A DNA stretch of 37,884 nt, taken from a virus. Lineage: Duplodnaviria > Heunggongvirae > Uroviricota > Caudoviricetes. The position numbers and the translations under genes were made by a program. This document shows positions 2,621 through 36,752 of the stretch, piece after piece; positions within the stretch are counted from its first letter, which is position 1, and the number at the start of each line of letters is the position of its first letter. Below the pieces are notes generated by a model. The model saw only the letters and a program-made list of their open reading frames with translations, was not told the DNA's origin and ran no database searches. The stretch lies in IMG/VR virus record IMGVR_UViG_2654587996_000006; one strand, written 5' to 3'.

Positions 2621-2732
2621 AACTGAAGTTGCCCTGAAAATGAAATTTTTTTGCACAACCGCAGAACTTTTCCGCAGGGCATCAGTCTTAATTAATGCCA
2701 CTGCTTTTCTTTGATGTCCCCATTTTGTGGAG

Positions 2733-2775
2733 CCCATCAACCCCGCCATTTCGGTTCAAGGTTGATGGGTTTTTT
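2733..2775 (+). terminator. rho-independent terminator-like hairpin plus T6 downstream of ybjL, near the prophage right boundary
   Basis: cccatcaacc ... ggttgatggg (10-bp stem) followed by tttttt; may overlap the attR core. Confidence 0.45.
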
Positions 2776-2855
2776 GTTGCCTGAAATTTATACCGTTTAA
2801 AATCATGATGTTAGAAGCACTGTTTTTTAACGATGGCGACAAAATGGCGGCAGCG

Positions 2856-3074
2856 TCAAAGAGAGAGCGCCACCTGTCCTGATTTCATTGGATGCGGCTG
2901 AACCGGATTTGACTCTTTTGGCGTTGCAATCGAACGAACAAAAGTTTCATGGGTAACAAAAGTATGGCTGCAGTTAATGTTCTGGCACTGGTTGTAACGC
3001 TCTTTGGTCAATGAAGATACCTGAAAACTGCTGCGAGTATGGGCGGCACTTCCACACAGTGGGCAAATCATCAT
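2856..3074 (-). CDS. ogr: late transcription activator Ogr (zinc-finger)
   Basis: ORF 2856-3107 trimmed to the internal start MMICPLCG; CPLC...CQNINC zinc-binding motif and the ~72-aa size match P2 Ogr/186 B; sits after gene D as in P2. Confidence 0.8.
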   Translation of the reverse strand: MMICPLCGSAAHTRSSFQVSSLTKERYNQCQNINCSHTFVTHETFVRSIATPKESNPVQPHPMKSGQVALSL

Positions 3075-3164
3075 TTTTCGAGTTCTCCCCATTTTTGCTA
3101 AATTCACAATAATGATACCGCATTATTCCATTTTGCAAACTTAAAAGTTCTCCATTGCGAAGAA

Positions 3165-10143: not shown

Positions 10144-10710
10144 TCAGGGAGATTCATTGCTCTTATTTGCCGGAAATTTTCTATAAATGGTAGAAACGCC
10201 TACATCAAAAATCAGTGCAATACGCTGTCTTGATTCTCCGGCCTCGAGTAAACGCCCAATCTGTGCCCACTGTTCGGTGGTCAACTTAGGACGGCGTCCA
10301 CCTACTCTGCCTTTGGCACGAGCTGCAGCCAGCCCTGCCCTGGTACGTTCAACTATCAGTTCGCGTTCCATTTCAGCCAGGGCACCCATGACATGAAAAA
10401 AGAAACGGCCCATTGGGGTGCTGGTATCAATACTGTCAGTCAGGCTTCGGAAATTCACGCCTCGCTGACGCAACTCTTCTATCAGCGTAACAAGATGCCG
10501 CATACTGCGCCCCAACCTGTCCAGCTTCCAGACAACCAGCGTGTCTCCTGCCGATAGTGTCCTGAGCAGTTTTTTCAACCCTGGTCTGTCGGACTTAGTG
10601 CCACTGATTTTATCCTCAAAAATCCGCTCACATCCCGCGCAGTTCAGTGCATTACGTTGCAAATCGGTGTTCTGGTCATTTGTTGACACGCGTACATAGC
10701 CAATAAGCAT
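10144..10710 (-). CDS. pin: serine DNA invertase (Pin/Gin/Cin/Hin family)
   Basis: MLIGYVRVSTNDQNTDLQRNAL... with the catalytic Ser in YVRVST and a C-terminal HTH; nearly identical over its length to enteric invertases (closest by memory to e14 Pin). The ORF as given starts 2 codons earlier at 10716. Confidence 0.9.
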   Translation of the reverse strand: MLIGYVRVSTNDQNTDLQRNALNCAGCERIFEDKISGTKSDRPGLKKLLRTLSAGDTLVVWKLDRLGRSMRHLVTLIEELRQRGVNFRSLTDSIDTSTPMGRFFFHVMGALAEMERELIVERTRAGLAAARAKGRVGGRRPKLTTEQWAQIGRLLEAGESRQRIALIFDVGVSTIYRKFPANKSNESP

Positions 10711-10777
10711 GATCATCCCCCTGAATAAAAACCGGGGATGATGCCAGTTAGCCGTAATCGCTGCATTTTCTTAAACG

Positions 10778-10792
10778 TTGGTTTGGGAGAAG
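10778..10792. repeat. left inversion crossover site (inverted repeat TTGGTTTGGGAGAAG)
   Basis: 15-bp perfect inverted copy of 12625-12639; both copies encode GLGE in frame. Confidence 0.7.
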
Positions 10793-11127
10793 CGGCAAAA
10801 CGAAATGTGGGAACAGGGGAAAATCAGATACCAGATATGTCTGCATTCCCATCTGGCAAAAACTGGTTTCAGTTACCAAGTGGTCATATTGTCCAAATGT
10901 TTTCGATGAATGTTTATGGGGCGGACACTAACGGAACTACTGGTAATTTCCCTATTGCATTTCCTTCAGGTGCACTTGCTGTTAGTGCCTTATGGTCTGA
11001 TGGCACATTAACGGCTGCTCCGACCTTTAAACTTATGGGGTACACGACAACAAGGACATCAGTAACCTTAAAAGTATCAACCGGAAATGGTTTGTATGGA
11101 ACTATGATTATTGCAATAGGAAGATAA
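10793..11127 (+). CDS. alternative tail-fibre C-terminal segment (silent in this orientation, no start of its own)
   Basis: The open frame continues in frame from the crossover site (...VGLGE|AAKRNVG...); after inversion it would fuse to the constant N-terminal part of H. Confidence 0.55.
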
Positions 11128-11128
11128 T

Positions 11129-11572
11129 ATGAATCAATATATTTATTCCCCTTCGGAAAATGCATTTTATGCTGTTAATTTAAAAAATACTTATGAAGTA
11201 AATGGAACATGGCCCGCTGATGCATTAGATATTCCTGATAACATTTCTGTAAAATATATGGCGAAACCGCCACAAGGGAAAATCCGAGTTGCAGGGGTAA
11301 ATGGTTTTCCCACATGGGCTGAAATACCTCAACCATCACATGAAGAACTTATTCAACAGGCAGAATCAGAAAGACAATTATTGCTTAATCAGGCCAACGA
11401 ACACATGAACAGTAAGCAATGGCCAGGTAAAGCCGCTATTGGTCGTCTGAAAGGTGAGGAACTGGCGCAATATAATTTGTGGTTGGATTATCTGGACGCA
11501 CTGGAACTGGTCGATACTTCCAGTGCTCCAGATATTGAATGGCCTACGCCTCCGGCAGTTCAGGCCAGATGA
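11129..11572 (+). CDS. alternative tail-fibre assembly chaperone (Tfa/U')
   Basis: 147 aa; C-terminal ...LWLDYLDALELVDTSSAPDIEWPTPP matches the conserved C-terminus of G (...LDYIDAVTVTDTSTAPDVIWPELP). Confidence 0.75.
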   Translation: MNQYIYSPSENAFYAVNLKNTYEVNGTWPADALDIPDNISVKYMAKPPQGKIRVAGVNGFPTWAEIPQPSHEELIQQAESERQLLLNQANEHMNSKQWPGKAAIGRLKGEELAQYNLWLDYLDALELVDTSSAPDIEWPTPPAVQAR

Positions 11573-12146
11573 CATCCGGCGCGGTGCTGGTATCTGTTAC
11601 CGTCACCGCGTCAATGTAATCCAGCACGGCGTTAAGTCGGGTTGTTTCTGCCTGCGTCAACTTCCGTCCGGCCTGCAATTTCAGTTGAATCAGACTAATG
11701 GAAGCCATTGCAGTATCAATCAGTGACTGACGTTGTGCTTCTGCCGCGTCTACTGCGGCGCTATGCTGTGCCTCGGTATCCGTCACCCATTTCTCACCAT
11801 CCCATTTATCGTATGGCGTTAACGGGGCGATAGTGGTTGTTTTTTCGGGGTAATCACCCGGAGTTGTGATTTCTTTGGCGTCTCCCGTTTCGGTGTTATA
11901 GACGATTTCACCGCGATGGTCTGGCACATATTCCCATGAGTTTAAATCCATCGAACGGCAGATAGCATAACCCGCCTTATGTGTGCCAGGGGCATCTAAA
12001 CAGGAATATGCAGGGATACCGACGCCAACAGCAAGATATTCATTTGAAGTGGAAATATATTCTCGAGTTTCACCATCATAGTTATAGACGGTAATATTCC
12101 CTGCTTTGGTGGCGATAATCTCGCTATTTAATATGGCGTTATCCAT
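11544..12146 (-). CDS. G: tail-fibre assembly protein G
   Basis: 200 aa, start overlaps the H stop (TAATG); conserved Tfa C-terminal motif. Confidence 0.85.
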   Translation of the reverse strand: MDNAILNSEIIATKAGNITVYNYDGETREYISTSNEYLAVGVGIPAYSCLDAPGTHKAGYAICRSMDLNSWEYVPDHRGEIVYNTETGDAKEITTPGDYPEKTTTIAPLTPYDKWDGEKWVTDTEAQHSAAVDAAEAQRQSLIDTAMASISLIQLKLQAGRKLTQAETTRLNAVLDYIDAVTVTDTSTAPDVIWPELPEA

Positions 12147-13687
12147 TATGCAGCCCTCACAATATAGTTAAATGCAATATTCCTTGGTCGAACCCTAAAA
12201 CCAGCCCCTGCGCCTGCTCCAGTTGGTGGCAATTCGATAGAGGGGTATGCTGTTGCAGGGGAATATAAACCTTCACGGGAATCATAATCAGTCGTCATAT
12301 AGTTAGACGTATTATCAGAAACAGTTTCTGTCGGTCTGGTAACCAGACGATAAGAGCCAGTGGTTGGTGACCTGACCAGACCAAAACTTTCAACCAGAGT
12401 GGCTTTTTGAAAGCTTAATAATCCCCGACCACTGTCAGCTCCACGCCCGTCATCCCAGCCACGAATAAACTCACCACGTAAATCAGGCAATTTATTTGTC
12501 GGATAAGCCTTTGCCAGTTCCGGGTATTCTTCAGCAGAAAAAGCTGCACCGTTGCATTTCAGCCAGCCTGTCGGCGGAGTGGCTGAAGGCCATGGAACAG
12601 GTACACCAACAGGTAATGCCGAACCTTCTCCCAAACCAAGGTATGCGAGAAGACCAGCTACATCCTTTCCACTCAAATTAGTCAGCGTATTGTCCAGCGG
12701 TTGTTTACCTGCCAGCGCATTAAGCATTGTCGTGGCAAAGTTCGGATCATTCCCCAGCGCCGCCGCCAGTTCGTTCAGTGTATCTAGGGCCGCAGGTGCA
12801 GAACCCACCATTCCTGCAATCGCCGATTTCACAAAAGCCGTAGTGGCAATCTGTGTATTGTTGACCGACTGCGCCGCCGTGGGGGCTGTTGGCGTTCCGG
12901 TGAGTGCCGGACTCGACAGCGGCGCTTTCAGTGCCAGCGCATTGTTAATGGTGGTACTGAATTTCGGATCATTGTTAATGGCTACGGCTATTTCTTTCAG
13001 CGTGTCCAGCGTGGCTGGCGCACCATTAATAAGAGCCGTCAGTGCCGCCTGAACAAATGCGGTGGTCGCAAGCTGCGTGGTATTATTCCCCGCCGCTGGC
13101 GTTGGCGCTTTGGGGGTTCCGGTAAACGTCGGACTTTCTTTGGGTGCATACTGTGAATGCGGGTCCGGTGCGGCAAGATGTTTTGCCATCAGGTCATCCA
13201 CGTACACCTTCAGCTCCAGTGCCTTGTCATCCACATACTTGCGGGTTGCCAGCACTACAGCAGGGTCGATTTTCAGGGTGATATTGTCCGTACTGCTGGT
13301 AATCAGCACCATGCGCACGGTCTGGGTGCGCCCGCTGCCTTCAGCCAGTTGCGGCTTATAGCTTTCCGGGCAGTTGCCCACGGCAATCAATGCCCCGGAC
13401 TCATCAAACAGGCCCACTTCACGTATCCACCAACCGCCCTCGTTTTCAGGGATCACCTGTTCAGCAATAATCTGGCTGCTGTTCTGCGGGTCGATATAAA
13501 GCATATTCAGCGCAGCCCGGCGTTTCTCATTTACCAGTGCCGTCTGCTTTGCGTCCGGCGTTGGCAATACTCCGCCGCCATCGCCCACCGCCATATGGGT
13601 AATTTTTAGCGGCACACCGAGCGCGGCGGCGCTGGCAAGTTTCGCCGCGCCAATATCCGTCAGCAGGGTATAAAATTTTGTGCTCAT
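12146..13687 (-). CDS. H: tail fibre protein H (constant N-terminus plus currently expressed variable C-terminus)
   Basis: 513 aa; Ala/Thr-rich repeats (TTAFVxxA, NDPxF) typical of tail fibres; the inversion crossover site lies inside the gene at 12625-12639. Confidence 0.9.
   Translation of the reverse strand: MSTKFYTLLTDIGAAKLASAAALGVPLKITHMAVGDGGGVLPTPDAKQTALVNEKRRAALNMLYIDPQNSSQIIAEQVIPENEGGWWIREVGLFDESGALIAVGNCPESYKPQLAEGSGRTQTVRMVLITSSTDNITLKIDPAVVLATRKYVDDKALELKVYVDDLMAKHLAAPDPHSQYAPKESPTFTGTPKAPTPAAGNNTTQLATTAFVQAALTALINGAPATLDTLKEIAVAINNDPKFSTTINNALALKAPLSSPALTGTPTAPTAAQSVNNTQIATTAFVKSAIAGMVGSAPAALDTLNELAAALGNDPNFATTMLNALAGKQPLDNTLTNLSGKDVAGLLAYLGLGEGSALPVGVPVPWPSATPPTGWLKCNGAAFSAEEYPELAKAYPTNKLPDLRGEFIRGWDDGRGADSGRGLLSFQKATLVESFGLVRSPTTGSYRLVTRPTETVSDNTSNYMTTDYDSREGLYSPATAYPSIELPPTGAGAGAGFRVRPRNIAFNYIVRAA
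12625..12639. repeat. right inversion crossover site inside H
   Basis: CTTCTCCCAAACCAA is the reverse complement of 10778-10792. Confidence 0.7.
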
Positions 13688-19424: not shown

Positions 19425-20075
19425 TCAGCGGCTGTCATTGCGCAGTCTGCGCTCCAGCTGCTGTTTGTCTTTTTTCACGCCACAGCGGGGATCGAGCTGT
19501 AACGCATGGTTGAGATGATTAAGGGCGGAAGCCGGGTTGCTTTCACTCAGGACAGCGCCAATCGCTTTATGCAGACGCGCCCGTGACTGGTCCGGCATAT
19601 CCATACCGTCTGTCAGCTCCAGGGTCTGCAGCAACAGATCGGCATCAAAGCCGGTGGCGGCAAGCATTGCGCTCTGGGCTGCATCTGCCATTTCCTCTGC
19701 CAGCACGGTCTGCACGTTGCGGTTACCTAACGGCATCACCCAGCCATGACGCAGGGCGTGACGCCCGATCTCCAGCGCCCCGGCATAATCTCCGGCATCA
19801 ATGCGCCACAGCATCACGTACATCAGCACGTCATCCTGCTGTGCGCCTCCGGCAGTCAGGACACCCTCTGCCCAGGCGGCGTACTTCGGCAGCAGTTCCA
19901 CCTTAATCTCCGCTTTTTTGACCGTGGACTGAACGCCCTTGAGACGGCGGCGGTCTTCCGCCAGTTGCAGCAGCATCAGGTCATAGCCCGACGCGTGGCG
20001 AACGCTGCCGCCCTCACGGGCGGCCTGTTCAGCCTGAACGCGCAGGCGATGCTGCCGTGCGGGACTCAGGCTCAT
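19425..20075 (-). CDS. M: terminase endonuclease (small) subunit M
   Basis: 216 aa; follows N in the P2 order O-N-M-L. Confidence 0.8.
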   Translation of the reverse strand: MSLSPARQHRLRVQAEQAAREGGSVRHASGYDLMLLQLAEDRRRLKGVQSTVKKAEIKVELLPKYAAWAEGVLTAGGAQQDDVLMYVMLWRIDAGDYAGALEIGRHALRHGWVMPLGNRNVQTVLAEEMADAAQSAMLAATGFDADLLLQTLELTDGMDMPDQSRARLHKAIGAVLSESNPASALNHLNHALQLDPRCGVKKDKQQLERRLRNDSR

Positions 20076-22129: not shown

Positions 22130-23896
22130 ATGAACACCACACTGACACCCGCAGATCTCGATCCCCGTCGGCAGGCCATGCTGCTGTACTTTCAGGGATA
22201 CCGCGTCGCCCGCATTGCTGAAATGCTGGGCGAGAAAGTTGCAACCGTTCACAGCTGGAAAAAACGCGACAAGTGGGGTGACTATGGGCCGCTGGATCAG
22301 ATGCAGCTCACCACCGCCGCACGCTACTGCCAGCTCATTATGAAGGAGCACAAAGAAGGGAAAGATTTCAAAGAAATTGACCTGCTGGCACGCCAGTCTG
22401 AGCGCCACGCGCGGATCGGCAAGTTTAACAATGGCGGCAACGAAGCCGACTTAAACCCTAACGTTGCCAACCGCAACAAAGGCCCACGTCGTCAGCCGGA
22501 AAAGAATGTTTTCACCGATGAACAGATTGAGAAACTGGAAGAAATCTTCCATTCCTCTATGTTCAACTACCAGCGCCACTGGTGGGAAGCCGGAAAAACC
22601 AACCGCATCCGCAACCTGCTGAAGTCACGCCAGATCGGCGCGACCTTTTACTTTGCCCGTGAAGCCCTGATTGACGCCCTGCTGACCGGGCGTAACCAGA
22701 TTTTCCTTTCTGCCAGCAAGGCTCAGGCCCACGTCTTTAAACAGTACATCATCGACTTTGCCAAAGAAGTGGAGGTGGAGCTGAAAGGCGATCCGATGGT
22801 GCTTCCTAACGGGGCCACGCTTTACTTCCTCGGCACCAATGCCCGCACGGCCCAGAGTTACCACGGCAACCTGTATCTGGATGAATATTTCTGGATACCG
22901 AAATTCCAGGAGCTGCGCAAAGTGGCTTCCGGTATGGCTATTCACAAAAAATGGCGACAAACCTATTTTTCCACGCCATCCAGTCTGACACACAGTGCTT
23001 ATCCGTTCTGGTCCGGTGCGCTGTTCAACCGTGGGCGCAACAAAGCCGATAAGGTGGACATCGACCTGTCCCACAGCAATCTGGCCCCCGGCCTGCTGTG
23101 CGCAGACGGGCAATACCGCCAGATAGTCACCGTGGAAGATGCGGTGCGCGGCGGCTGTAACCTGTTCGACCTCGACCAGCTACGCATGGAGTACAGCCCA
23201 GACGAATACCAGAACCTGCTGATGTGCGAGTTTGTGGACGATCTCGCGTCCGTGTTTCCGCTCAGCGAGCTGCAGGCGTGCATGGTGGACAGTTGGGAAG
23301 TCTGGACCGACTTTCATGCACTGGCGCTGCGCCCGTTTGGCTGGCGCGAAGTGTGGATCGGTTATGACCCGGCAAAAGGTACGCAAAACGGCGACAGCGC
23401 TGGATGCGTGGTGGTGGCACCGCCAGCCGTGCCGGGTGGTAAGTTCCGCATTCTTGAGCGTCACCAGTGGCGCGGGATGGACTTCCGCGCCCAGGCTGAC
23501 GCCATCAAAAAACTTACCGAACAGTACAACGTGACTTATATCGGTATCGACTCAACCGGCGTTGGTCACGGGGTTTACGAGAACGTGAAAGCGTTCTTTC
23601 CTGCCGTCCGGGAGTTTGTCTACAACCCCAACGTTAAAAACGCCCTGGTACTCAAGGCCTACGACATTATCAGCCACCGCCGTCTGGAGTTTGACGCCGG
23701 GCACACCGACATTGCGCAGTCATTCATGGCAATCCGTCGCGCAACCACCGCCAGTGGCAACCGCCCAACCTATGAAGCCAGCCGCAGCGAAGAAGCCAGC
23801 CACGCCGATCTGGCCTGGGCAACAATGCACGCACTGTTTAACGAACCACTGCAGGGCGAGTCCGCCAATACCAGTAATATTGTGGAGATTTTTTGA
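22130..23896 (+). CDS. P: terminase ATPase (large) subunit P
   Basis: 588 aa; P2 gpP-like; divergent from O. Confidence 0.9.
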   Translation: MNTTLTPADLDPRRQAMLLYFQGYRVARIAEMLGEKVATVHSWKKRDKWGDYGPLDQMQLTTAARYCQLIMKEHKEGKDFKEIDLLARQSERHARIGKFNNGGNEADLNPNVANRNKGPRRQPEKNVFTDEQIEKLEEIFHSSMFNYQRHWWEAGKTNRIRNLLKSRQIGATFYFAREALIDALLTGRNQIFLSASKAQAHVFKQYIIDFAKEVEVELKGDPMVLPNGATLYFLGTNARTAQSYHGNLYLDEYFWIPKFQELRKVASGMAIHKKWRQTYFSTPSSLTHSAYPFWSGALFNRGRNKADKVDIDLSHSNLAPGLLCADGQYRQIVTVEDAVRGGCNLFDLDQLRMEYSPDEYQNLLMCEFVDDLASVFPLSELQACMVDSWEVWTDFHALALRPFGWREVWIGYDPAKGTQNGDSAGCVVVAPPAVPGGKFRILERHQWRGMDFRAQADAIKKLTEQYNVTYIGIDSTGVGHGVYENVKAFFPAVREFVYNPNVKNALVLKAYDIISHRRLEFDAGHTDIAQSFMAIRRATTASGNRPTYEASRSEEASHADLAWATMHALFNEPLQGESANTSNIVEIF

Positions 23897-24924
23897 TGGG
23901 AAAGAGTAAGAAGAACCGCGCTGCGTCGACGAACCAGATCCAGCATAAAAGTCAAACTACAGCCGAAGCATTCAGCTTCGGTGATCCCGTTCCTGTTCTG
24001 GACCGCCGCGAACTACTGGACTATGTGGAATGCGTACAGACAGATCGCTGGTATGAGCCGCCAGTAAGCTTTGACGGACTGGCGCGCACCTTCCGCGCCG
24101 CCGTGCATCACAGTTCACCAATTGCGGTGAAATGCAACATTCTGACCAGTACCTACATCCCCCACCCGCTGCTCAGCCAGCAGGCTTTTTCACGTTTTGT
24201 GCAGGACTATCTGGTATTTGGTAACGCCTACCTGGAGAAACGCACGAACCGCTTCGGTGAAGTTATCGCCCTTGAGCCTGCTCTGGCAAAATACACCCGA
24301 CGCGGGTTAGACCTGGATACCTACTGGTTTGTGCAATACGGCATGACTACGCAGCCGTATCAGTTCACGAAAGGCAGCATCTTTCATCTGATGGAACCGG
24401 ATATCAACCAGGAGATCTACGGCCTGCCCGGTTATCTTTCTGCCATTCCGTCAGCCCTGCTCAACGAGTCCGCCACGTTGTTCCGCCGTAAGTATTACAT
24501 TAACGGCAGCCATGCAGGCTTCATCATGTACATGACCGATGCCGCGCAGAATCAGGAGGATGTGAACAACCTCCGCAACGCGATGAAAAGCGCCAAAGGT
24601 CCAGGCAACTTCCGCAACCTGTTTATGTACTCACCTAACGGCAAAAAAGACGGGCTTCAGATCATCCCATTGTCAGAAGTCGCGGCGAAGGATGAATTTC
24701 TGAATATCAAAAATGTCAGCCGCGATGACATGATGGCTGCGCACCGCGTACCGCCGCAAATGATGGGGCTTATGCCAAGTAATGTTGGGGGATTTGGGGA
24801 TGTGGAAAAAGCGAGTTTAGTGTTTGTTCGCAATGAGTTAATCCCCCTTCAAAAAAGATTTGAGGAGCTGAATGAATGGATAGAAGAAACAGTAATTAAG
24901 TTTAATGAATATAAATTAAATTGA
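23893..24924 (+). CDS. Q: portal protein Q
   Basis: 343 aa (P2 Q is about 344 aa); 4-nt overlap with P. Confidence 0.9.
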   Translation: MMGKSKKNRAASTNQIQHKSQTTAEAFSFGDPVPVLDRRELLDYVECVQTDRWYEPPVSFDGLARTFRAAVHHSSPIAVKCNILTSTYIPHPLLSQQAFSRFVQDYLVFGNAYLEKRTNRFGEVIALEPALAKYTRRGLDLDTYWFVQYGMTTQPYQFTKGSIFHLMEPDINQEIYGLPGYLSAIPSALLNESATLFRRKYYINGSHAGFIMYMTDAAQNQEDVNNLRNAMKSAKGPGNFRNLFMYSPNGKKDGLQIIPLSEVAAKDEFLNIKNVSRDDMMAAHRVPPQMMGLMPSNVGGFGDVEKASLVFVRNELIPLQKRFEELNEWIEETVIKFNEYKLN

Positions 24925-24930
24925 TTAATT

Positions 24931-24962
24931 CAGTAGTAGCAACTTTAAAGGCGCTACTACTG
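24931..24962. terminator. hairpin between convergent Q and the KAP NTPase gene
   Basis: cagtagtagc / gctactactg 10-bp stem in an AT-rich context. Confidence 0.4.
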
Positions 24963-24970
24963 AACAAACA

Positions 24971-26635
24971 CTATAAATTGAATTTATGCATTCTTAACTC
25001 ATTCAATTTACTCTCTCTAGAAATCTTCATTAAAGCAGCCTTAGCTTTTATAGAAACAGATCTCGTTTTCTCATTTACATTACCAATACGACTAAATTTG
25101 AGACAAGTAGCAACGTGGGATGTTAAATGATTCCCATGCAAACTTTTAAAATAATGATAATAATCATCTTCAGTAGCGCTACTTAATACTTCTATATCAT
25201 CATCATTCCAGCCATTTTTTCCACTGAGCGCATCCAACACCTCACCTAAAGTGCGCTTGGGTGAATCAGTTAGATACACACCTTTAAATTTCTCAATGAT
25301 TTCTGCATCTTTGATTGGTCTAAAAAGATAAAAATTATCCAGATCAAATAACTCTATTTCACTTCGTCTTTCTTGAATATAATACGTAATCATCTCAGAT
25401 GCCTTTGTATCTTCACCTAGTTCACGGAAGACCCCAACAAGGCTATCAAGATCATTAGGAGATACTTGAGTTACACAATCCATAAAGCACTTATAAAAAT
25501 GAGAAACAACTTCTTCTACATTATCATCAAAACTATTATGGAATAAATCCCATGCACTTCTAAATGAGTTTGACTTTTTATTTTCTAAAGCCTGTTTATT
25601 TATAATTTTTATTGCCTCATTAAACTCTGTCATATCTATATAACCATTCCTGACTAGCTTTGCTATTTTCCTATCCAGCTCATCAACCCTTGTAAAATTA
25701 TAGCTCAGTAAAATATCCTTCCATTTTTTTTCTTCTTCTGTTACATCCTTTTTGCCTATTGAGTAAATACTTTCCATAGATTCGAGGAAATCCAAAGAGG
25801 GAACATCCTTATCTGATTTAGAGCAATAATAGGCCCAATTCATTAATACAACCGTATGCAAAAATTGCATTTTAACTTCACTTTCGCACTCTTCAAAAGC
25901 TCGCCATGCATTTTCTACGTTTCGCTCTATTTTCTTTAAAACTCTAATATTTTTGATGCCTAACGAAATAGTATATTGTGCTAACGGCTTATGAAAATCC
26001 TTACTATTATCATATGCTATCTGTGCAGATTCACTGGGCGTAGGTGAAAAATGCAACTCAATGTCAATTACTTTTTCTTTAAACTTTTCATAATCAGCAA
26101 CTTCTTTAGTACCATCATTGAGTAAAAGTATAACCTTACATTTCTTTTGTTCTTTTAACAAAGAAATAAGACCTAATACATCTTTAAGTTCTAATGACGA
26201 TCCTTTACGCTCTAAATCATCTATGCAAATTAATGAATCTGACACAGACATAAATGACCATGCTTCTATTGCAGGAGCGGCAGACTTTATATACGGCAGC
26301 TCTTTCAATTTACTCCACGAACCTCGCCCCAATATTTCAAGCATACCTAATGTATTTTTTCTTAAACTATCTAAACTTGGCTCATGTCCTATGGAGTCTT
26401 TTGAAACTGCATTTTCAAAAATGGAATATTTTAATCTATCTAACGAAGATATACCGAAAAGAGAGACATAGGAATAATGCGAAGCAGAAATCATATTTTG
26501 ACACTTTGCTTCCAGAAGAAACTTATTCCAACTAAATGTCTTACCAACTCCCCACTCTCCTTTAATTGCCATAACCGAAGGGGCTGATTTAGAAACAAAG
26601 TTTAGAATTTGTTCTCGTACCAAGCTTAGCGACAT
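24971..26635 (-). CDS. KAP-family P-loop NTPase (cargo gene, candidate anti-phage factor)
   Basis: 554 aa; Walker A GEWGVGKTF matches the KAP signature GxWGxGKT; Walker B LICIDDLER; strong RBS AAGGAG; visibly AT-rich compared with the flanking phage genes. Confidence 0.8.
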   Translation of the reverse strand: MSLSLVREQILNFVSKSAPSVMAIKGEWGVGKTFSWNKFLLEAKCQNMISASHYSYVSLFGISSLDRLKYSIFENAVSKDSIGHEPSLDSLRKNTLGMLEILGRGSWSKLKELPYIKSAAPAIEAWSFMSVSDSLICIDDLERKGSSLELKDVLGLISLLKEQKKCKVILLLNDGTKEVADYEKFKEKVIDIELHFSPTPSESAQIAYDNSKDFHKPLAQYTISLGIKNIRVLKKIERNVENAWRAFEECESEVKMQFLHTVVLMNWAYYCSKSDKDVPSLDFLESMESIYSIGKKDVTEEEKKWKDILLSYNFTRVDELDRKIAKLVRNGYIDMTEFNEAIKIINKQALENKKSNSFRSAWDLFHNSFDDNVEEVVSHFYKCFMDCVTQVSPNDLDSLVGVFRELGEDTKASEMITYYIQERRSEIELFDLDNFYLFRPIKDAEIIEKFKGVYLTDSPKRTLGEVLDALSGKNGWNDDDIEVLSSATEDDYYHYFKSLHGNHLTSHVATCLKFSRIGNVNEKTRSVSIKAKAALMKISRESKLNELRMHKFNL

Positions 26636-26728
26636 AACTCACTCCTTGATTGCGAATGTTAATTATATATTTTACCAAAAATCTTAATCACCACCTATAG
26701 AAAGGTGAAAGATGGGTGCTGGCGCGCG

Positions 26729-26747
26729 CTCGTATCCCCGCCACGCC
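26729..26747 (-). other. candidate cos cohesive-end site
   Basis: Minus strand reads GGCGTGGCGGGGATACGAG; the first 13 nt match my recollection of the 186/P2 19-nt cohesive end (GGCGTGGCGGGGAAAGCAT); GC-rich island in an AT-rich region, in the expected place between Q and the replication genes. Confidence 0.4.
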
Positions 26748-26786
26748 TGCCCGCTTTGTGTAGTGGTTTTCATGCACCTGCATGAC

Positions 26787-26806
26787 ATAAGCAAAAGCCC
26801 GCCAGC
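26787..26806 (-). terminator. hairpin gcccgcca-gctc-tggcgggc with a short U-run on the minus strand
   Basis: 8-bp GC stem; minus-strand continuation is TTTTGCTTATG; lies between the HNH gene and the KAP gene. Confidence 0.4.
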
Positions 26807-26929
26807 TCTGGCGGGCATCAGCAAAAACGATCCTCAAACGATCATGCGATTTCATGCGGCATAGACATGCGTTGGCAAAAATGTACGAAATACTCAGCTT
26901 ACAGGAAATGGTCTTTTTCCAACCTCCAG

Positions 26930-27649
26930 TTAGCCAAAGCAGAAACCAATATTGCAATTTGAAACTCCACAGTTGTGAAATTGATGTGGACCGACTCTTA
27001 GCTTGTGTTCGTCTCCTACAATCCGAGTCCCCTTAACCAACATATCTAATCTTTCCACAATCAATCTTTCAGGCGCATCAACTTTAATAATTAAACGAGG
27101 ACCTTTCCTTTTTTCTATAATAGTTATTCTAGGACCAACAACCTGAACATCCCAATGCCTTGCACTACAAACCCACTCATTCTTAATTAATTCAAGATTA
27201 ACAATACCTTGACTATCGTAAAATTTACCCGAAATAAGAAAAGCATTATTTTCTTTTTCAATGGTTAACAATGGCTCATTTTGAAACATTATTGGTACAG
27301 TACAGGATTCAAATGTCGCACCACCAAATATTATTGTTGGATGCCTATCAGAAAAGTCCAATATATCGGCCACATTCCCTTTTTGTAAGGCTGCAGGAGA
27401 TTCCATTGCTTTAATTATTTTCTCTTTAGAGTAAAGACGTTTCGTTACTTTCGCATGGCACGTAGGACAAAGTAGTGCTATTGCATTTGGAGAGTGCTCC
27501 TTTGCATCAGCGTATGTGGGAATTACATGCTCATACTCAACAATGGGAGAAGCACAAACAACGCAACCAAAGCCACAGCGCTGCCTTACCTCCAGTTTTA
27601 CAGGTTCAGGAATTGTTCTAGATAACCCATGCTTGTTAATAGTTGTCAT
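26930..27649 (-). CDS. HNH endonuclease-motif protein (cargo gene)
   Basis: 239 aa; N-terminal CGFGCVVC ... EYEHVIP ... N ... CPTCH, the Cys4/His-Asn-His layout of HNH nucleases; AT-rich. Confidence 0.7.
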   Translation of the reverse strand: MTTINKHGLSRTIPEPVKLEVRQRCGFGCVVCASPIVEYEHVIPTYADAKEHSPNAIALLCPTCHAKVTKRLYSKEKIIKAMESPAALQKGNVADILDFSDRHPTIIFGGATFESCTVPIMFQNEPLLTIEKENNAFLISGKFYDSQGIVNLELIKNEWVCSARHWDVQVVGPRITIIEKRKGPRLIIKVDAPERLIVERLDMLVKGTRIVGDEHKLRVGPHQFHNCGVSNCNIGFCFG

Positions 27650-27771: not shown

Positions 27772-28005
27772 TTAATGCAGCCAGCTGTCGTCTTCCCACA
27801 CCTTCTGCATAATTTTCATCACTTGTTTTCTTTCTTCGTCCAGTTGCAGTCCGGTCAGTTCCACACCGTTAGAGCTACCTTTACGGATACGAATTACCGT
27901 TTTGGGATACAAGGGGCGCAGATTGCGGTAAAGCTCGGATTCAAGGGCGTCCAGGGTAGACTGGCTAATCTTCTGCTCTTTATCGATCATTATTTCAATG
28001 CGCAT
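27772..28005 (-). CDS. DinI-like protein (Tum-type SOS antirepressor module?)
   Basis: ORF 27772-28077 trimmed to MRIEIMIDK (RBS AGGTGA); alignable with E. coli DinI (MRIEVTIAK...QETWE); downstream of a LexA box. Confidence 0.7.
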   Translation of the reverse strand: MRIEIMIDKEQKISQSTLDALESELYRNLRPLYPKTVIRIRKGSSNGVELTGLQLDEERKQVMKIMQKVWEDDSWLH

Positions 28006-28015
28006 AAAAGTCACC

Positions 28016-28204
28016 TCAACTGATGACATCCATTGAGCGGTTGTATTCGTGGGTTCTGATTTTTGCCATGAGTTCATCAGTCAATTCAGAAACCCACTGC
28101 AGAGCCAGCCCCTTCTCTTCATCACTACACTCACTAGCCGCGACAAGCTTAAGAAAAAAATCAATGCGCTGGAGCTTCAAAGACTCCAAAAAATAGTCCT
28201 GCAT
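28016..28204 (-). CDS. small protein (62 aa) co-transcribed with the DinI-like gene
   Basis: ORF 28016-28306 trimmed to MQDYFLESLK, which has the RBS GGAGGA; the LexA box lies about 40 bp upstream. Confidence 0.55.
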   Translation of the reverse strand: MQDYFLESLKLQRIDFFLKLVAASECSDEEKGLALQWVSELTDELMAKIRTHEYNRSMDVIS

Positions 28205-28357: not shown

Positions 28358-30772
28358 TTAATACAGGTTCCGCCACTTATCATCTTCCCGCAAACGCTGG
28401 TTCCGATAGAAGATACGCAGGCCTGCTCCTGACGGAATACTGCCGCCGCGAAGGAGTAAATCGACCTCTTTCTCGCTACCATCAAATCCTCTGGACTTCA
28501 GCTCATAGACGAGCTGCAGTCGCTGATGGTCTGTAATTCGCTGTTTGTAGTCTTTACGCCGTATCGGTTTAACCAGGCGTAGCCTTGCTGCCAGTTCCCG
28601 GCGCTCTTTTTTGCTCATACTGTGCAGGAAATCGTGCAACTCCTTGTCATCCATGCTGATAATATCCGTTCTGGGGTCCCCATCTGCTGATTTATCTTTC
28701 TCCTGTTGGTTCAAATTTTCAGCAAGGGGACAGTTATTGCCACGAGTCCAAGGGGCGCAAGCGCCCTGGTCGGCTACCGCCTCCTGAACGTCAACGGCTT
28801 TACGAACCATTTTCCACTTCACTGCATGAGTGCAGATCTTGCCCTCTGCAATGGGTGACCAGATGCCATAAATACGAATACCGTGATCGCCATAAGCGGT
28901 CGGCTCTTCGTTAATTTCATAAGCTGTTCTGATAAGGTGATATTTGCGGGGAACCAGTACGCCGCCCTGCTTCATGATGTAGGTGGCAAAACAGCCAGCA
29001 TCAGCGGCAGCCAGGATGGCATCAAGGCGCGGGTCATCCAGTACCGGCGCACCTGCTTTTTTGTCACCCTGTTGCCTTGCCGCCTGACCAGCCAGCAAGC
29101 GAAGTTCACGGTACGCCTGACGCCCCGGAATACCAAAGAAGCGGAACTGCTGAACACGATGCAGAGACGCCCAGGCATTAACGTATTCGGCGTTATCACG
29201 CAGGGATTTACCCGTTTCCTTGCTGATCTCGCCAGCCAGACCACGTCCGTCAATGTTCTTACTGATGTATTTCGCGATGTAGCTTGTCGGCGTTCCTTTG
29301 CGCGGGTTTATCAGCTCAGACTTAAAGCGTGGACCCGTGTTATTGCCCAGTTCCTCGCGGTCTTCACGGATGGCAAACTTACGCAACAATGCAGTAATGG
29401 CGCGGCGGTCTTTTTTGCGCATGAAACACATGAGATGCCAGTGCACAGTACCGTCATGGTGCGGCTCAGCCACCCGCACGCCATACCAGCGCAACCCGGC
29501 TTTGTGCATAGCCTTACGAAATGCAGCAAACATGCCGACCAGATAATCGCTGCTTTGTCTTACCGTCGCATTTGTCCAGGTTGGGTTTGGTCTGCCGTTA
29601 TTGAGCGTAGAATGGAAACGTGACGGACAGGTAATGGTGTAGAAAACGGCGCAGTCACCACGCATTTCCGCGATAAGCTCCAGACCTTTAACACAGGCCA
29701 TCATCTCATTGCGGCGGTGCGCCGGGTTGCTGCTGCTGGCGTTTACCACGTCTTCCATATCCAGCGTGTCGCCGTCTTCGTTCACCAGTTCATGAGAACG
29801 GAAAAACTCCAGCGACTTGCGGCGCTGCTCACGTTTATGCGTCACTGCTTCATAGCTGACATAGGGAGATGCTTTTTTGCTGACCAGGCAGACAGCACGC
29901 AACTGCTCTTCCCGCCATTCGCAACGTATCTTCCACAATTTTCGATACCACCAGTCGGCGCAAAGCATACGTGCCAGCGAACCCGGTATGAGTTCATAGG
30001 GCACGGGTTTGCGGCGGTTTCTTTTCCGACGGAGTTTCTCAAACGCAGGCGGGATAACATCCAGACGCAGGGTTTCCGCTGCCACCTTTTCCCATGTCTT
30101 GCGGATTTCTTCTGGCTTAACGTCATCGGAGGCATACAAATCACCACAAGCGGCCTCAAGACACATGCTCATATGCGCTGCTACCAGGGTGGACAGGCGT
30201 TTTACCTGATCCTGACTCATTTCAGGCAGGATCAGCAGGCCCTCAAGCCCTTGATGGCTTGCCATAAAACGGAAAGAAGCGGATAGCTGACTGTCGCGTA
30301 CATACTCCAGTCGCTCCAGACATGGCTTAATCGTCTCACGCAAATAGCGGGAATAAGCCTTTGGCCTGCCCAGGCTGCTGAAGTATTCGATACGTTGCAT
30401 CAGCGGCTTGCTGATGTGGGTGGGCTGGGCGCTGACGTCCGCCAGAATGACCATGTCCGGGTTAAAACGCTGCTGCTCATGCGCCAGCTTTGCCCGACTA
30501 ATGAGATTATCCTGCTCCATTTCGCGCTGGACAGGATCACGGGATTCATTAAAGAAATAACGCTCCCAGACCTGCTCACTCAGTGCATCGCGGCGCAGCT
30601 GTTCCTGCTCGTTATCGGCAGCGTACAGAGTGATCATGTTTGAAAGTGCAGACTCCGGCGCAACTTCCGCCGGGTCCAGATAAGGGTTAATGGCCTTTTT
30701 CGGGCCGTTCCATGAAAATGCTGCAGCGGCCTCGTTAAAGCCGCTAGAGTTGCTCATATCGTCATGACTCAT
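28358..30772 (-). CDS. A: replication initiation protein A (HUH rolling-circle endonuclease)
   Basis: 804 aa; HUH-type motif GTVHWHLM and tyrosine motif YIAKYISK; P2 gpA-like. Confidence 0.85.
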
Positions 30773-31626
30773 ACACGCACCTCGTACACAGCAGAACTAT
30801 CCACGCCACGCGAAGGATCAAATCCCACCCAGCAGCGCGCCCCGGAAACAGCAATGATTTCTGTTGCAGATTTACTCTCGCCAGCCGACACGCCGATGCT
30901 GCGTTTTGCCTTGATGTAGTGGTGAGTGAAATTGCGATACAGCGAACGAATCAGGGATGTGTCACTGTTAGAAACAATGACCGGATGACCTTCAGATGAT
31001 CGATGTTCAAGAACGGATGCCAGGTGATACTGGTCATCCTCAGTGAAGCCATCAGTGTGATAGCCGGAAAACGTACCGTCATAAGGCGGATCGCAATACA
31101 CCACATCCCCCGCCTTCAACATCGCCAGCGTTTCATCAAAGCTGGCGCAGATAAACGTTGCTCGCTGGGCTTTTTCTGCAAATTTGCGAATTTCTTTTTC
31201 AGGGAAATACGGATTTTTATAATTCCCGTAGGGAATGTTGAAATGCCCGCTCTTGTTATAGCGACATAACCCACGGTAACCATGACGATTGAGATACAGG
31301 AAATATACCGCTTTCATGAAATCAGTAATTTCAGTGGAGTAATTAAACTCCTGCCTTATGTTGTAATAAGCCACCTCCCTGTTTGCTTCCTCAAATAAAG
31401 CTCTGGCACGAGATATAAACGCCTCGCAATCAGCAGCAACCTTTTTATAGAGGTTGATTAAATCAGGATTAATATCCGCAACAAGATAGCTGGGGTAATC
31501 CGTCTCTATCATCACAGCACAAGAACCCGCGAAAGGTTCAACCAGTCGCGGGCCAGCAGGAAGGTATTTTTTCAGTTCCGGCATAATGGCGGTTTTATTA
31601 CCCGCCCATTTCAGGATGGTGCTCAT
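30769..31626 (-). CDS. dam: DNA adenine methyltransferase (Dam-like, orphan)
   Basis: ORF 30769-31740 trimmed to [11 protein letters not shown]; AdoMet motif EPFAGSCAV and catalytic DPPY; start overlaps the upstream stop (ATGA) and the 3' end overlaps the A start. Confidence 0.8.
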
Positions 31627-31850
31627 ACAGCACCTCCGTTGTAATGTTTGCCTTTCAGCTCTGCGATTTCCTGACAGGTAATGCAAAGCTGCACACCCGG
31701 AATGGCGCGACGTCGTGCTGGCGGAATTGGTGCTTCGCACTCAATGCAAAGCACGCGGGATACGCCCGGCGTTTTGGCGCGGGCAGCACGGATATGACGC
31801 TGGCGTTCTTCTTCAACGCGCTGCTGTACGAGATCCATTGCATCAGCCAT
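31623..31850 (-). CDS. TraR/DksA-family C4 zinc-finger protein
   Basis: 75 aa; CIECEAPIP...CITCQ four-Cys motif. Confidence 0.7.
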   Translation of the reverse strand: MADAMDLVQQRVEEERQRHIRAARAKTPGVSRVLCIECEAPIPPARRRAIPGVQLCITCQEIAELKGKHYNGGAV

Positions 31851-34552: not shown

Positions 34553-35209
34553 GTGAAGGCTCCAAAAGAAGACTTCTGGTTCAACTTTAAGATCGCTTTT
34601 GGAATCTGTCAACGAATTTTGGATTTCTTTGGAGGATTTGTGGATTTCAATAGCGGCGGTAAGAAAGCCATAGAACGTTTGGTTGAAGCATACGGGTTCG
34701 GTACCCGTCAGGCTCTCTGTGATCATTTAGGTGTTTCTAAGAGCACCATGGCAACGCGTTATATGCGTGATATTTTTCCGGCAGATTGGGTAATCCAGTG
34801 CGCCCTTGAAACGGGTACCTCGCTTAATTGGCTAACAACAGGGCATGGTTCAAAGCAAGCATCAGCAAATACAAATACTATAGAAGTAGTAAAATATTTA
34901 TTGTCTGATGGAGCATTGCAGGAAGACGGTTTTTATATTTTTGATAAGGGATTTCTACCCTCTACGTTTAAAAAACCTTTTGTCATCACAGATAACAATT
35001 CTGAATTTATTTGTGATAAAGAATTTGATGATATACGTGATGGTAAATGGGTAATAAGTATTGATGGCGAAATAACAATCCGCGACATCACTCGTTTACC
35101 CGGTGGAAGAATTTTCGTTGAAGGTGGAAACAGAGCCTTCGAGTGCAAGATAGAAGATGTTGAAATAATTGGAAAAATTATAAGCTTAACAGTTAAGTAT
35201 GTTAGATAA
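34553..35209 (+). CDS. cI: CI immunity repressor (186 type)
   Basis: N-terminal HTH region (RLVEAYGF...ALETGTSLNWLTTGHG); the real start may be the in-frame GTG at 34640 (about 189 aa, preceded by GGAGG), which would leave a longer apl-cI switch region. Confidence 0.7.
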   Translation: MKAPKEDFWFNFKIAFGICQRILDFFGGFVDFNSGGKKAIERLVEAYGFGTRQALCDHLGVSKSTMATRYMRDIFPADWVIQCALETGTSLNWLTTGHGSKQASANTNTIEVVKYLLSDGALQEDGFYIFDKGFLPSTFKKPFVITDNNSEFICDKEFDDIRDGKWVISIDGEITIRDITRLPGGRIFVEGGNRAFECKIEDVEIIGKIISLTVKYVR

Positions 35210-35420: not shown

Positions 35421-36752
35421 ATGAGCACAGATATAACTTTCGATATACGTGATGAATATAAAAGAAAAGCCATTGCAGAAAAAATAATAAGTTTGCTAGA
35501 GTCTAATATTCCTGTTTCACCTATGGTCATAGATGGGGACTGGGGGACTGGAAAAACAGAGTTTTCAAAAAAGTTAGCATCCTTAATTGAAATAAACTCG
35601 ACCAATCATAAAGTAGTTTATATAGATGCTTTTACTGAAGATCACAACGATGCTCCCATACTTACAATAATGGCCGCAATTGCAGCTCTATATAATAGCG
35701 ATGAAAAAAAGGAATTAATATCTAAGGCATTGCCAGCCCTCAGATTCGGACTTAAGACTGTACTCAAAGCTGGTGCTGGTTGGGTATTAAAACAAAATGC
35801 GGATGAAATTAATGAGGAATTTGAAGAGGTTATCAAAGACGCTGCAAATTCAGCTATCGATGGAACCATCGAGGCTCTGTTAGAAGATCATATCGAGGCA
35901 CAAAAGAACGTTCTTGCTCTAAAAGAAGTACTAACCAAATTAGCTGGAGAAAGTAAACTAACAATAATTATAGATGAGTTAGACAGATGTAAGCCTAGTT
36001 TTGCCATTTCTATTATTGAAAATATAAAACATGTTTTTGATATAAAAAACATTAACTTTTTATTAATTGCAAACACAACTCAACTAAAAGCATCCATAAA
36101 TCATATCTATGGCTCTTCTGTAGACTCCAACCGTTATCTTGACAAATTTATAAAATTTACATACAGCCTTCCTGTTACCTTTAAGGAAGATAATTATAAT
36201 GACACTTTAACTTCCAAAAATCATTGGATGATGCTATGTGAGCAATCTGAAAGGCTGACCGCTGCAGTAGAAGCCAGCGAAGATATTTTCTTACAGTTCA
36301 TTGAAAGTAGAAAATTATCATTACGTGAGGTTGAAACACTTGCTAGATATGTTGAAATATACCAACTACTATCAGGCGACAAAATTAGCAACAAATATAT
36401 TTATGGATATTGTTATTACAGGACTCTAGCGATAATAATCTACACTTTTAACCGAGAGTTAGCTCTCAACTTTCTTGAAGATAAAGTTGATGCTCAATCA
36501 ATCATGAAATTGTTTGGTTTATCTAAATTTTCATATCAAACAAGTGAATATAATGTAGATAATTATGAATATGCTATATTTGGAATAGTTTACAAATACT
36601 TATCTGAAAACTCATCTCTTTTACCTGCTGAGGAAAATATAAAAAGACAATGGGCAGAAATGAGTGAATACCATTTTTTAAAAGGTGGTGGCGGTATTGG
36701 TGAACCAACAAATATTGTGAAAGATGCTTTAAAAGTTTTTTTACTTCAGTGA
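35421..36752 (+). CDS. KAP-family P-loop NTPase, second copy (cargo gene, candidate anti-phage factor)
   Basis: 443 aa; Walker A IDGDWGTGKTEF matches the KAP signature; Walker B LTIIIDELDRCKP; AT-rich; lies between cI and int. Confidence 0.8.
   Translation: MSTDITFDIRDEYKRKAIAEKIISLLESNIPVSPMVIDGDWGTGKTEFSKKLASLIEINSTNHKVVYIDAFTEDHNDAPILTIMAAIAALYNSDEKKELISKALPALRFGLKTVLKAGAGWVLKQNADEINEEFEEVIKDAANSAIDGTIEALLEDHIEAQKNVLALKEVLTKLAGESKLTIIIDELDRCKPSFAISIIENIKHVFDIKNINFLLIANTTQLKASINHIYGSSVDSNRYLDKFIKFTYSLPVTFKEDNYNDTLTSKNHWMMLCEQSERLTAAVEASEDIFLQFIESRKLSLREVETLARYVEIYQLLSGDKISNKYIYGYCYYRTLAIIIYTFNRELALNFLEDKVDAQSIMKLFGLSKFSYQTSEYNVDNYEYAIFGIVYKYLSENSSLLPAEENIKRQWAEMSEYHFLKGGGGIGEPTNIVKDALKVFLLQ

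Follow-up and report, generated by a model that had tools for sequence, protein, structure and literature searches.

The 149-bp island at positions 26722-26870 of the window (the whole 37.9-kb stretch of DNA that was analyzed) is, with high probability, the cos packaging site of an apparently intact, Fels-2-like prophage of the P2 family. We base this assignment on the homology of the island with the cos sites of P2, 186, P4 and SEN8, in conjunction with the intact M, P and Q genes of the prophage. The island parts two cargo slots, and the published gpA-gpQ hotspot of Fels-2-like phages thus resolves into two independently assorting slots; given this independence, genes located across cos from each other should not be merged by default into one defense system. 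The main value of the cos call, which would fix the virion chromosome ends of the prophage, lies in annotation. Both the cos sequence and the layout with cargo on both sides are already documented for this phage clade, and no open question is changed. The special significance that an earlier sequence-only reading of this DNA had proposed for the site does not hold; the feature itself is real and was correctly located, and its identity as cos is very likely.

The window contains an almost complete P2-family prophage, in the orientation inverse to the standard P2 map, inserted at grxA-ybjM-ybjL-rybB, the same chromosomal site as that of a collinear prophage in Escherichia coli EC100; the integrase gene (36754-end) runs off the window. 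The backbone genes involved in packaging or bordering the cargo region are:

19425-20075, minus strand: terminase small subunit gene (P2 M homolog); Pfam Phage_term_smal, E = 3.5e-40.
22130-23896, plus strand: terminase large subunit gene (P2 P homolog); Pfam Terminase_5, Terminase_6N and Terminase_6C, all full length.
23893-24924, plus strand: portal gene (P2 Q homolog); Pfam Phage_portal, E = 2e-17; syntenic with P2, 186 and SEN8.
27772-28077, minus strand: DinI/Tum-like gene, which forms the conserved boundary on the right of the right cargo slot; Pfam DinI, E = 1e-22.
28358-30772, minus strand: replication gene A homolog; Pfam Phage_GPA, E = 4e-128.

The M, P and Q homologs are intact, with both terminase subunits and the portal matching Pfam full length, and every packaging or morphogenesis gene that was checked is of full length and in its syntenic place. 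In the window, the order is A, DinI, HNH, cos, KAP, Q, P; the backbone order is common to P2, 186, SEN8 and Fels-2, with cos located between the A/tum/DinI side and Q. The DinI/Tum-like gene occupies the same place in 186, Fels-2, SopEPhi and SEN8; as the prophage also has a 186-type CI, its induction by the SOS response would be plausible. Replication gene A is the outer border of the gpA-gpQ hotspot as outlined in published accounts (Rousset et al. 2022; NAR 2026 gkag898).

The conserved island consists of the following elements:

26722-26870: whole conserved cos island, 149 bp, with sharp homology breaks on both sides.
26722-26776, minus strand: 55-bp cos core: the 19-nt overhang, preceded by 29 bp on the right-end side and followed by 7 bp (CGCGCGC) on the left-end side.
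26729-26747, minus strand: predicted 19-nt 5' cohesive end (cosN), GGCGTGGCGGGGATACGAG, identical in SEN8 and in register with the ends of P2, 186, PSP3 and P4.
26866-26870, 26853-26857 and 26843-26847, minus strand: three GCATG repeats, with a fourth copy (TGCATG) at 26771-26776.
26789-26816, minus strand: terminator-like hairpin GCCCGCCAGAGCTGGCGGGC (26816->26797) followed by TTTTGCTT, found by a terminator scan and by minimum-free-energy folding.

The 19-mer read on the minus strand from 26747 to 26729, GGCGTGGCGGGGATACGAG, is unique in the window. Its first 13 nucleotides coincide with those of the 186/PSP3 cohesive end GGCGTGGCGGGGAAAGCAT at all 13 positions and with those of the P2 end GGCGAGGCGGGGAAAGCAC at 12 of 13, which bears out the 13-nt match to P2/186 reported in the sequence-only reading. 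Over its whole length, the 19-mer matches 186 at 15, P2 at 14 and SEN8 at all 19 positions; six of the 19 overhang positions differ from, or are only partly shared with, the experimentally sequenced P2/186 ends. The 13-mer pattern GGCGWGGCGGGGA occurs once in the 37.9-kb window and in none of 100 dinucleotide-preserving shuffles, and when two mismatches are allowed, the other three matches in the window are at the chance level. The spacer between Q and the KAP gene was searched as well and yielded nothing cos-like, leaving 26729-26747 as the only cos-like match in the window; the region directly after Q (24930-24970), which had been named as the alternative location of the virion ends, contains a convergent hairpin only.

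The similarity to the known ends extends beyond the overhang. When the cos sequences of P2, 186 and PSP3 are compared with the window, as had been suggested earlier, they and the P4 ends align in exact register with flanks included, in the form ...AAAACCnnnnnnnnAAGnGGGCn, 19-mer, yGCGCGC. In the P2 orientation, the window reads ...GTCATGCAGGTGCATGAAAACCACTACACAAAGCGGGCA, then GGCGTGGCGGGGATACGAG, then CGCGCGCCAG, and the counterpart in 186 is ...GTCATGCAACTGCATTAAAACCGACCCATAAAGTGGGCA, then GGCGTGGCGGGGAAAGCAT, then TGCGCGCCAG, with P2 and P4 in the same register. With P2, 186/PSP3 and P4, all of which have experimentally sequenced 19-nt 5' ends, the window shares the start of the overhang, GGCG(A/T)GGCGGGGA, the GCGCGC box just left of it and, on the right flank, the AAAACC...AAGnGGGC motif and the upstream GCATG repeats, as well as, in the case of 186, the CGCCAGAGCTGGCG palindrome. 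The last six bases of the overhang differ, being TACGAG in the window but AAGCAC or AAGCAT in the P2/186/P4 group. Across the core, identity in register is 54/55 with SEN8, 44/55 with P4, 43/55 with 186 and 41/55 with P2. A 55-bp core of P2-family cos sites has been attributed by later papers to Ziermann and Calendar (1990), and, given the limits of the homology with P2 and P4, 26722-26776 would appear to correspond to that core.

The most similar of the cos sites compared belongs to the Salmonella phage SEN8, a viable, Fels-2-like phage whose reported cos site (ggcgtggcggggatacgag) was assigned through annotation and sequence similarity. Bases 1-19 of the SEN8 record, labeled "putative cos site", coincide with the 19-mer at every position, and the homologous right-end sequence stops exactly at the last base of that record. 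Far from being absent from the cos of related phages, which would have counted against the earlier cos identification, the motif is present and, in SEN8, identical, and this identification is upheld by the homology with the P2, 186 and P4 sites. The record of Escherichia phage Cartapus breaks 32 nt upstream, inside the island, at what looks like an arbitrary assembly start and thus says nothing about the cut. Throughout the SEN8/Fels-2 group (Felsduovirus: Fels-2, SopEPhi and RE-2010), cos is likewise positioned between the DinI/gpA side and the Q side.

A blastn search identified the island in 91 phage records, including Fels-2, SopEPhi, RE-2010 and phages of Klebsiella, Yersinia and Escherichia, as well as in 1254 of 5426 complete E. 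coli genomes, irrespective of the genes next to it; an exact copy of the 30-mer spanning the cut is present at 34 loci in species-representative genomes from more than a dozen genera of Enterobacterales. In an alignment of 41 unique island variants, all in register, the core is invariant, and conservation begins sharply about 123 bp from the cut on the right-end side and ends 6-7 bp from it on the left-end side. Beyond these 6-7 bp, the left-slot cassettes are unrelated to one another in sequence, and P2 and P4 also lose similarity directly after GCGCGC. As noted in the earlier reading, the island is GC-rich amid AT-rich cargo (56% GC compared with 33% in the KAP gene and 38% in the HNH gene). 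The span given there, 26700-26810, places the site correctly but misjudges its extent, the conserved element being 26722-26870.

These observations bear on the possibility that the island is a relic or otherwise non-functional cos-like sequence in a defective prophage, or that packaging starts from another site. Many P2-like prophages in bacterial genomes are cryptic, and cleavage at the island is itself a prediction. Nevertheless, the window contains a single cos-like match, its core is identical at 54 of 55 positions to that of a viable phage and invariant among the 41 variants, and the genes checked for packaging and morphogenesis are all complete and in syntenic order, so that we give this possibility only a slim chance.

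If the island is the functional cos site, then, by homology with P2, 186 and P4, the terminase composed of gpM and gpP would recognize the circular phage genome at the island, probably via the palindrome and the GCATG repeats of the right-end side, and would nick the DNA on either side of GGCGTGGCGGGGATACGAG, with 19 bp between the two nicks; the linear molecule thus formed, with its 5' overhangs, would then be packaged via the Q portal. On the model of 186 and P2, the nicks are predicted at 26748/26747 on the minus strand and at 26729/26728 on the plus strand. In the P2 orientation, the elements of the island follow in the order three GCATG repeats, two GATC sites, hairpin, proximal TGCATG, the AAAACC...AAAGCGGGCA box, overhang and CGCGCGC. 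The GCATG repeats, which lie at matching places in P2, 186, P4, Fels-2, SopEPhi and MLG42, are candidate recognition repeats for the small subunit of the terminase. The pattern of conservation suggests that the right-end side holds the recognition determinants, with next to nothing required on the left; with only 7 bp conserved on the left-end side, foreign DNA could sit nearly flush with the left of cos without harm to packaging.

Two GATC (Dam) sites, 11 bp apart at 26829-26843, are kept in the island of most relatives. The prophage also encodes its own D12-class adenine methyltransferase (30769-31740).

The palindrome core of the hairpin is CGCCAGnnCTGGCG; at the same position, 186 has CGCCAGAGCTGGCG without the T run. 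For transcripts arriving from the HNH/DinI side, the hairpin is terminator-like and might act as a terminator. Among the relatives, the stem is largely preserved while the loop differs; in one sub-clade of island variants, the stem is shorter and the T run degenerate, much as in 186. The variant data fit a terminator and a protein-binding palindrome alike, and the two could not be separated. The hairpin was also considered as a structure conserved by covariation and rejected as such: the changes are mostly in the loop, and some weaken the stem, without clean compensatory pairs. The RNA fold of the whole region has no extra stability compared with shuffled sequences (z = -0.9), and the Rfam searches, of the whole window at the gathering threshold and of 26500-27100 at E <= 1, detected no family at the island.

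An 89-aa open reading frame (26688-26957, minus strand) extends over the entire cos island into the end of the HNH gene and probably reflects a false gene prediction at a cis-acting site. One could suppose that the island is maintained for the sake of this frame, or as a promoter/terminator module of the cargo, rather than for packaging: a hypothetical protein is indeed called over the island in some assemblies and phage records, and the terminator-like hairpin lies within it. We consider this hardly credible. The frame has no Pfam match and runs into the non-conserved left flank, and its called length changes with the neighboring cassette (89, 79 or 55 aa, or no call at all); the island itself has no Rfam match and shares homology with the ends of P2, 186 and P4, which were defined experimentally.

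With cos most probably at the island, the layout of the cargo follows:

24925-24970: Q/KAP spacer, with a 12-bp-stem hairpin TTCAGTAGTAGC...GCTACTACTGAA, likely a convergent terminator.
24971-26635, minus strand: left-slot cargo (cosL to Q), a 554-aa KAP-family P-loop NTPase; Pfam KAP_NTPase, 23.9 bits (cut-off 20).
26636-26721, minus strand: AT-rich KAP leader, 86 bp, with TGGTAAAAT (26677->26669), TATAAT (26667->26662) and AAGGAG (26647->26642).
26930-27649, minus strand: right-slot cargo (DinI to cos), a gene directed towards cos that encodes a 239-aa HNH-domain protein; Pfam HNH, 24.8 bits (cut-off 21.4).

The KAP gene (24971-26635) lies between the portal gene (23893-24924) and cos, and the HNH gene (26930-27649) lies beyond cos, in agreement with the sequence-only reading, and since the two cargo genes lie on either side of cos, they would come to opposite ends of the cos-cut virion chromosome. 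The KAP gene is read away from cos and is convergent with Q. In PADLOC, KAP matches the single-gene PDC-S49 (E = 1e-29), which is a candidate rather than a validated system, and HNH shows only a marginal match to mREase_IV (E = 0.0095). The KAP leader possibly comprises a promoter and a ribosome-binding site of its own, as judged from -10-like and Shine-Dalgarno motifs located by eye. A consensus sigma-70 scan of the spacer between cos and KAP called no promoter, and the promoter-like sites in the region are at the shuffle expectation; given this result, it is the motifs that point to a KAP promoter.

The KAP-cos-HNH layout is no oddity but the common one for this phage clade, and both the sequence and the arrangement have been described already. 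In P2 and 186, Q is about 170 bp from cos with no gene between, whereas in the window the KAP gene intervenes. Among the 25 species-representative loci with a measurable gap, the distance from cos to Q is 178-188 bp in four and 630-2990 bp in 21, and the right side is also expanded in about half of the loci; the corresponding distances in the window are approximately 1.8 kb left of cos and 1.0 kb right of it. The cargo of the relatives is different: the left slot of SEN8 is occupied by genes for a hypothetical protein and an HNH protein and its right slot by a gene for a DNA-binding protein, Fels-2 has STM2723.1 in the left and STM2726 in the right slot, and SopEPhi also has genes on both sides. 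The satellite P4 carries its gop-beta-cII cargo on the left side of cos. In phiCTX, where the order is cosL, promoter, ctx, terminators and then Q, an accessory gene likewise sits between cosL and the portal gene and, as in the window, is transcribed away from cos, converging with Q, and has a separate leader; in this case, however, the cargo is a pore-forming toxin rather than a KAP NTPase, and the annotated overhang is 21 nt long.

[quoted passage not shown] 1999, as quoted in PMC5694545), and in phiRSY1 it is described as carrying T6SS Vgr-like ORFs (PMC5694545). The cos-proximal gpA-gpQ interval is presented as the main defense hotspot of P2-like prophages (Rousset et al. 2022; NAR 2026 gkag898). 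The gpA-gpQ hotspot and the old/tin 'TO region' of P2 correspond to the same cos-adjacent interval, with highly variable, defense-type cargo between conserved flanks. As far as the two hotspot studies describe it, the hotspot is treated as one, whereas in the window, and in the clade generally, it is split by the cos island into two slots.

The contents of the two slots can be compared directly. The identical 239-aa HNH protein was found in the right slot of 26 contigs; their left slots are either empty or contain AIPR, PIN_12, a TIR-like gene or a three-gene set, and KAP is present in none of the 26. Conversely, where the identical KAP protein occupies the left slot (EC100 and 24 contigs), the right slot holds a HEPN_LA2681 gene, and in none of these is HNH present. 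HNH and KAP do not occur together in any of the 50 contigs or in any of the 5426 complete E. coli genomes. Across the relatives, the left slot contains AIPR, PIN_12, TIR-like, the three-gene set, KAP or no gene, and the right slot contains HNH, HEPN_LA2681, others or no gene. Thus, the left-slot and right-slot cassettes assort independently, and KAP and HNH would be independent cassettes, one per slot, brought together by recombination.

This result runs counter to the coupling of KAP and HNH that the sequence-only reading had implied, as do the hairpin with a T run on the transcribed strand between the HNH stop codon and cos (detected by both the terminator scan and the fold) and the KAP gene's own leader. 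Co-transcription or other coupling of the two genes is not supported, although leaky read-through may occur. That reading had further proposed that any co-transcription would be specific to the lysogen. In P2-type phages, however, the intracellular DNA that is replicated and serves as the packaging substrate is a closed circle, which is the form of the lytic cycle, too; the adjacency of KAP and HNH is therefore not confined to the lysogen.

ATPase-plus-nuclease pairs are common in defense systems, and the two genes lie on the same strand, 294 bp apart, in the order HNH, cos, KAP, as would fit a two-gene defense system that is split by cos, co-transcribed across the joined cos and for this reason active only in the circular or integrated state. 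We regard this as very improbable: HNH is accompanied by other left-slot genes or by none, KAP is accompanied by HEPN_LA2681, and the two never co-occur in the genomes compared; moreover, KAP matches a single-gene PADLOC candidate, a strong hairpin and T run separate HNH from cos, and the circular DNA is also the lytic-cycle form.

The window joins two lineages that are otherwise found separately. Compared with the HNH-type loci, it shows 100% identity from 26900 down to 26722, and compared with the KAP-type EC100 prophage, it has no mismatch from about 25100 up to 26757. From these limits, the HNH-type and KAP-type donor lineages meet within 26722-26757, a 36-bp interval that includes the overhang. 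The junction fits recombination that used the cos core as shared sequence and, more tentatively, a re-pairing of ends through the joining of cohesive ends, but ordinary homologous recombination would predict it just as well; with 36 bp making up about a quarter of the 149-bp island, the location of the junction is not statistically distinctive. It is conceivable, if rather doubtful, that the island is not a passive divider but causes the flanking slots to evolve as unlinked modules. The slots would be the extremes of the virion chromosome, and phages of the clade share an identical 19-nt overhang; joining of cohesive ends between different co-resident genomes, followed by one homologous crossover elsewhere, could then re-pair a left-end cassette with a foreign right-end cassette.

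Several other features of the prophage were observed. The RybB sRNA gene (2700-2778, plus strand; Rfam, 105 bits), the sole match in the whole-window Rfam scan, directly adjoins one end of the prophage (ogr, 2856-3107). The prophage is flanked by ybjL-rybB and, in EC100, by rcdA, the other end being beyond the window; this position probably puts the attachment site at the 3' end of rybB or immediately beside it. A second KAP-family P-loop NTPase gene, with a stronger Pfam match (35421-36752, plus strand; 443 aa; KAP_NTPase, E = 1.4e-53), is situated between the genes for the CI repressor (34553-35209) and the integrase, a different known cargo position of P2-like prophages, and is missing from the otherwise collinear EC100 prophage; with the KAP gene at 24971-26635, the prophage thus has two unrelated KAP-type genes in two hotspots. 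Finally, the tail-fiber C-terminal/assembly region (11266-12181 and 12435-12642, within 10144-12642 of the window) is in the opposite orientation relative to the EC100 prophage and adjoins a 190-aa ORF (10144-10716, minus strand), which carries the annotation of a recombinase family protein in EC100, so that this segment looks like an invertible host-range segment in the other orientation.
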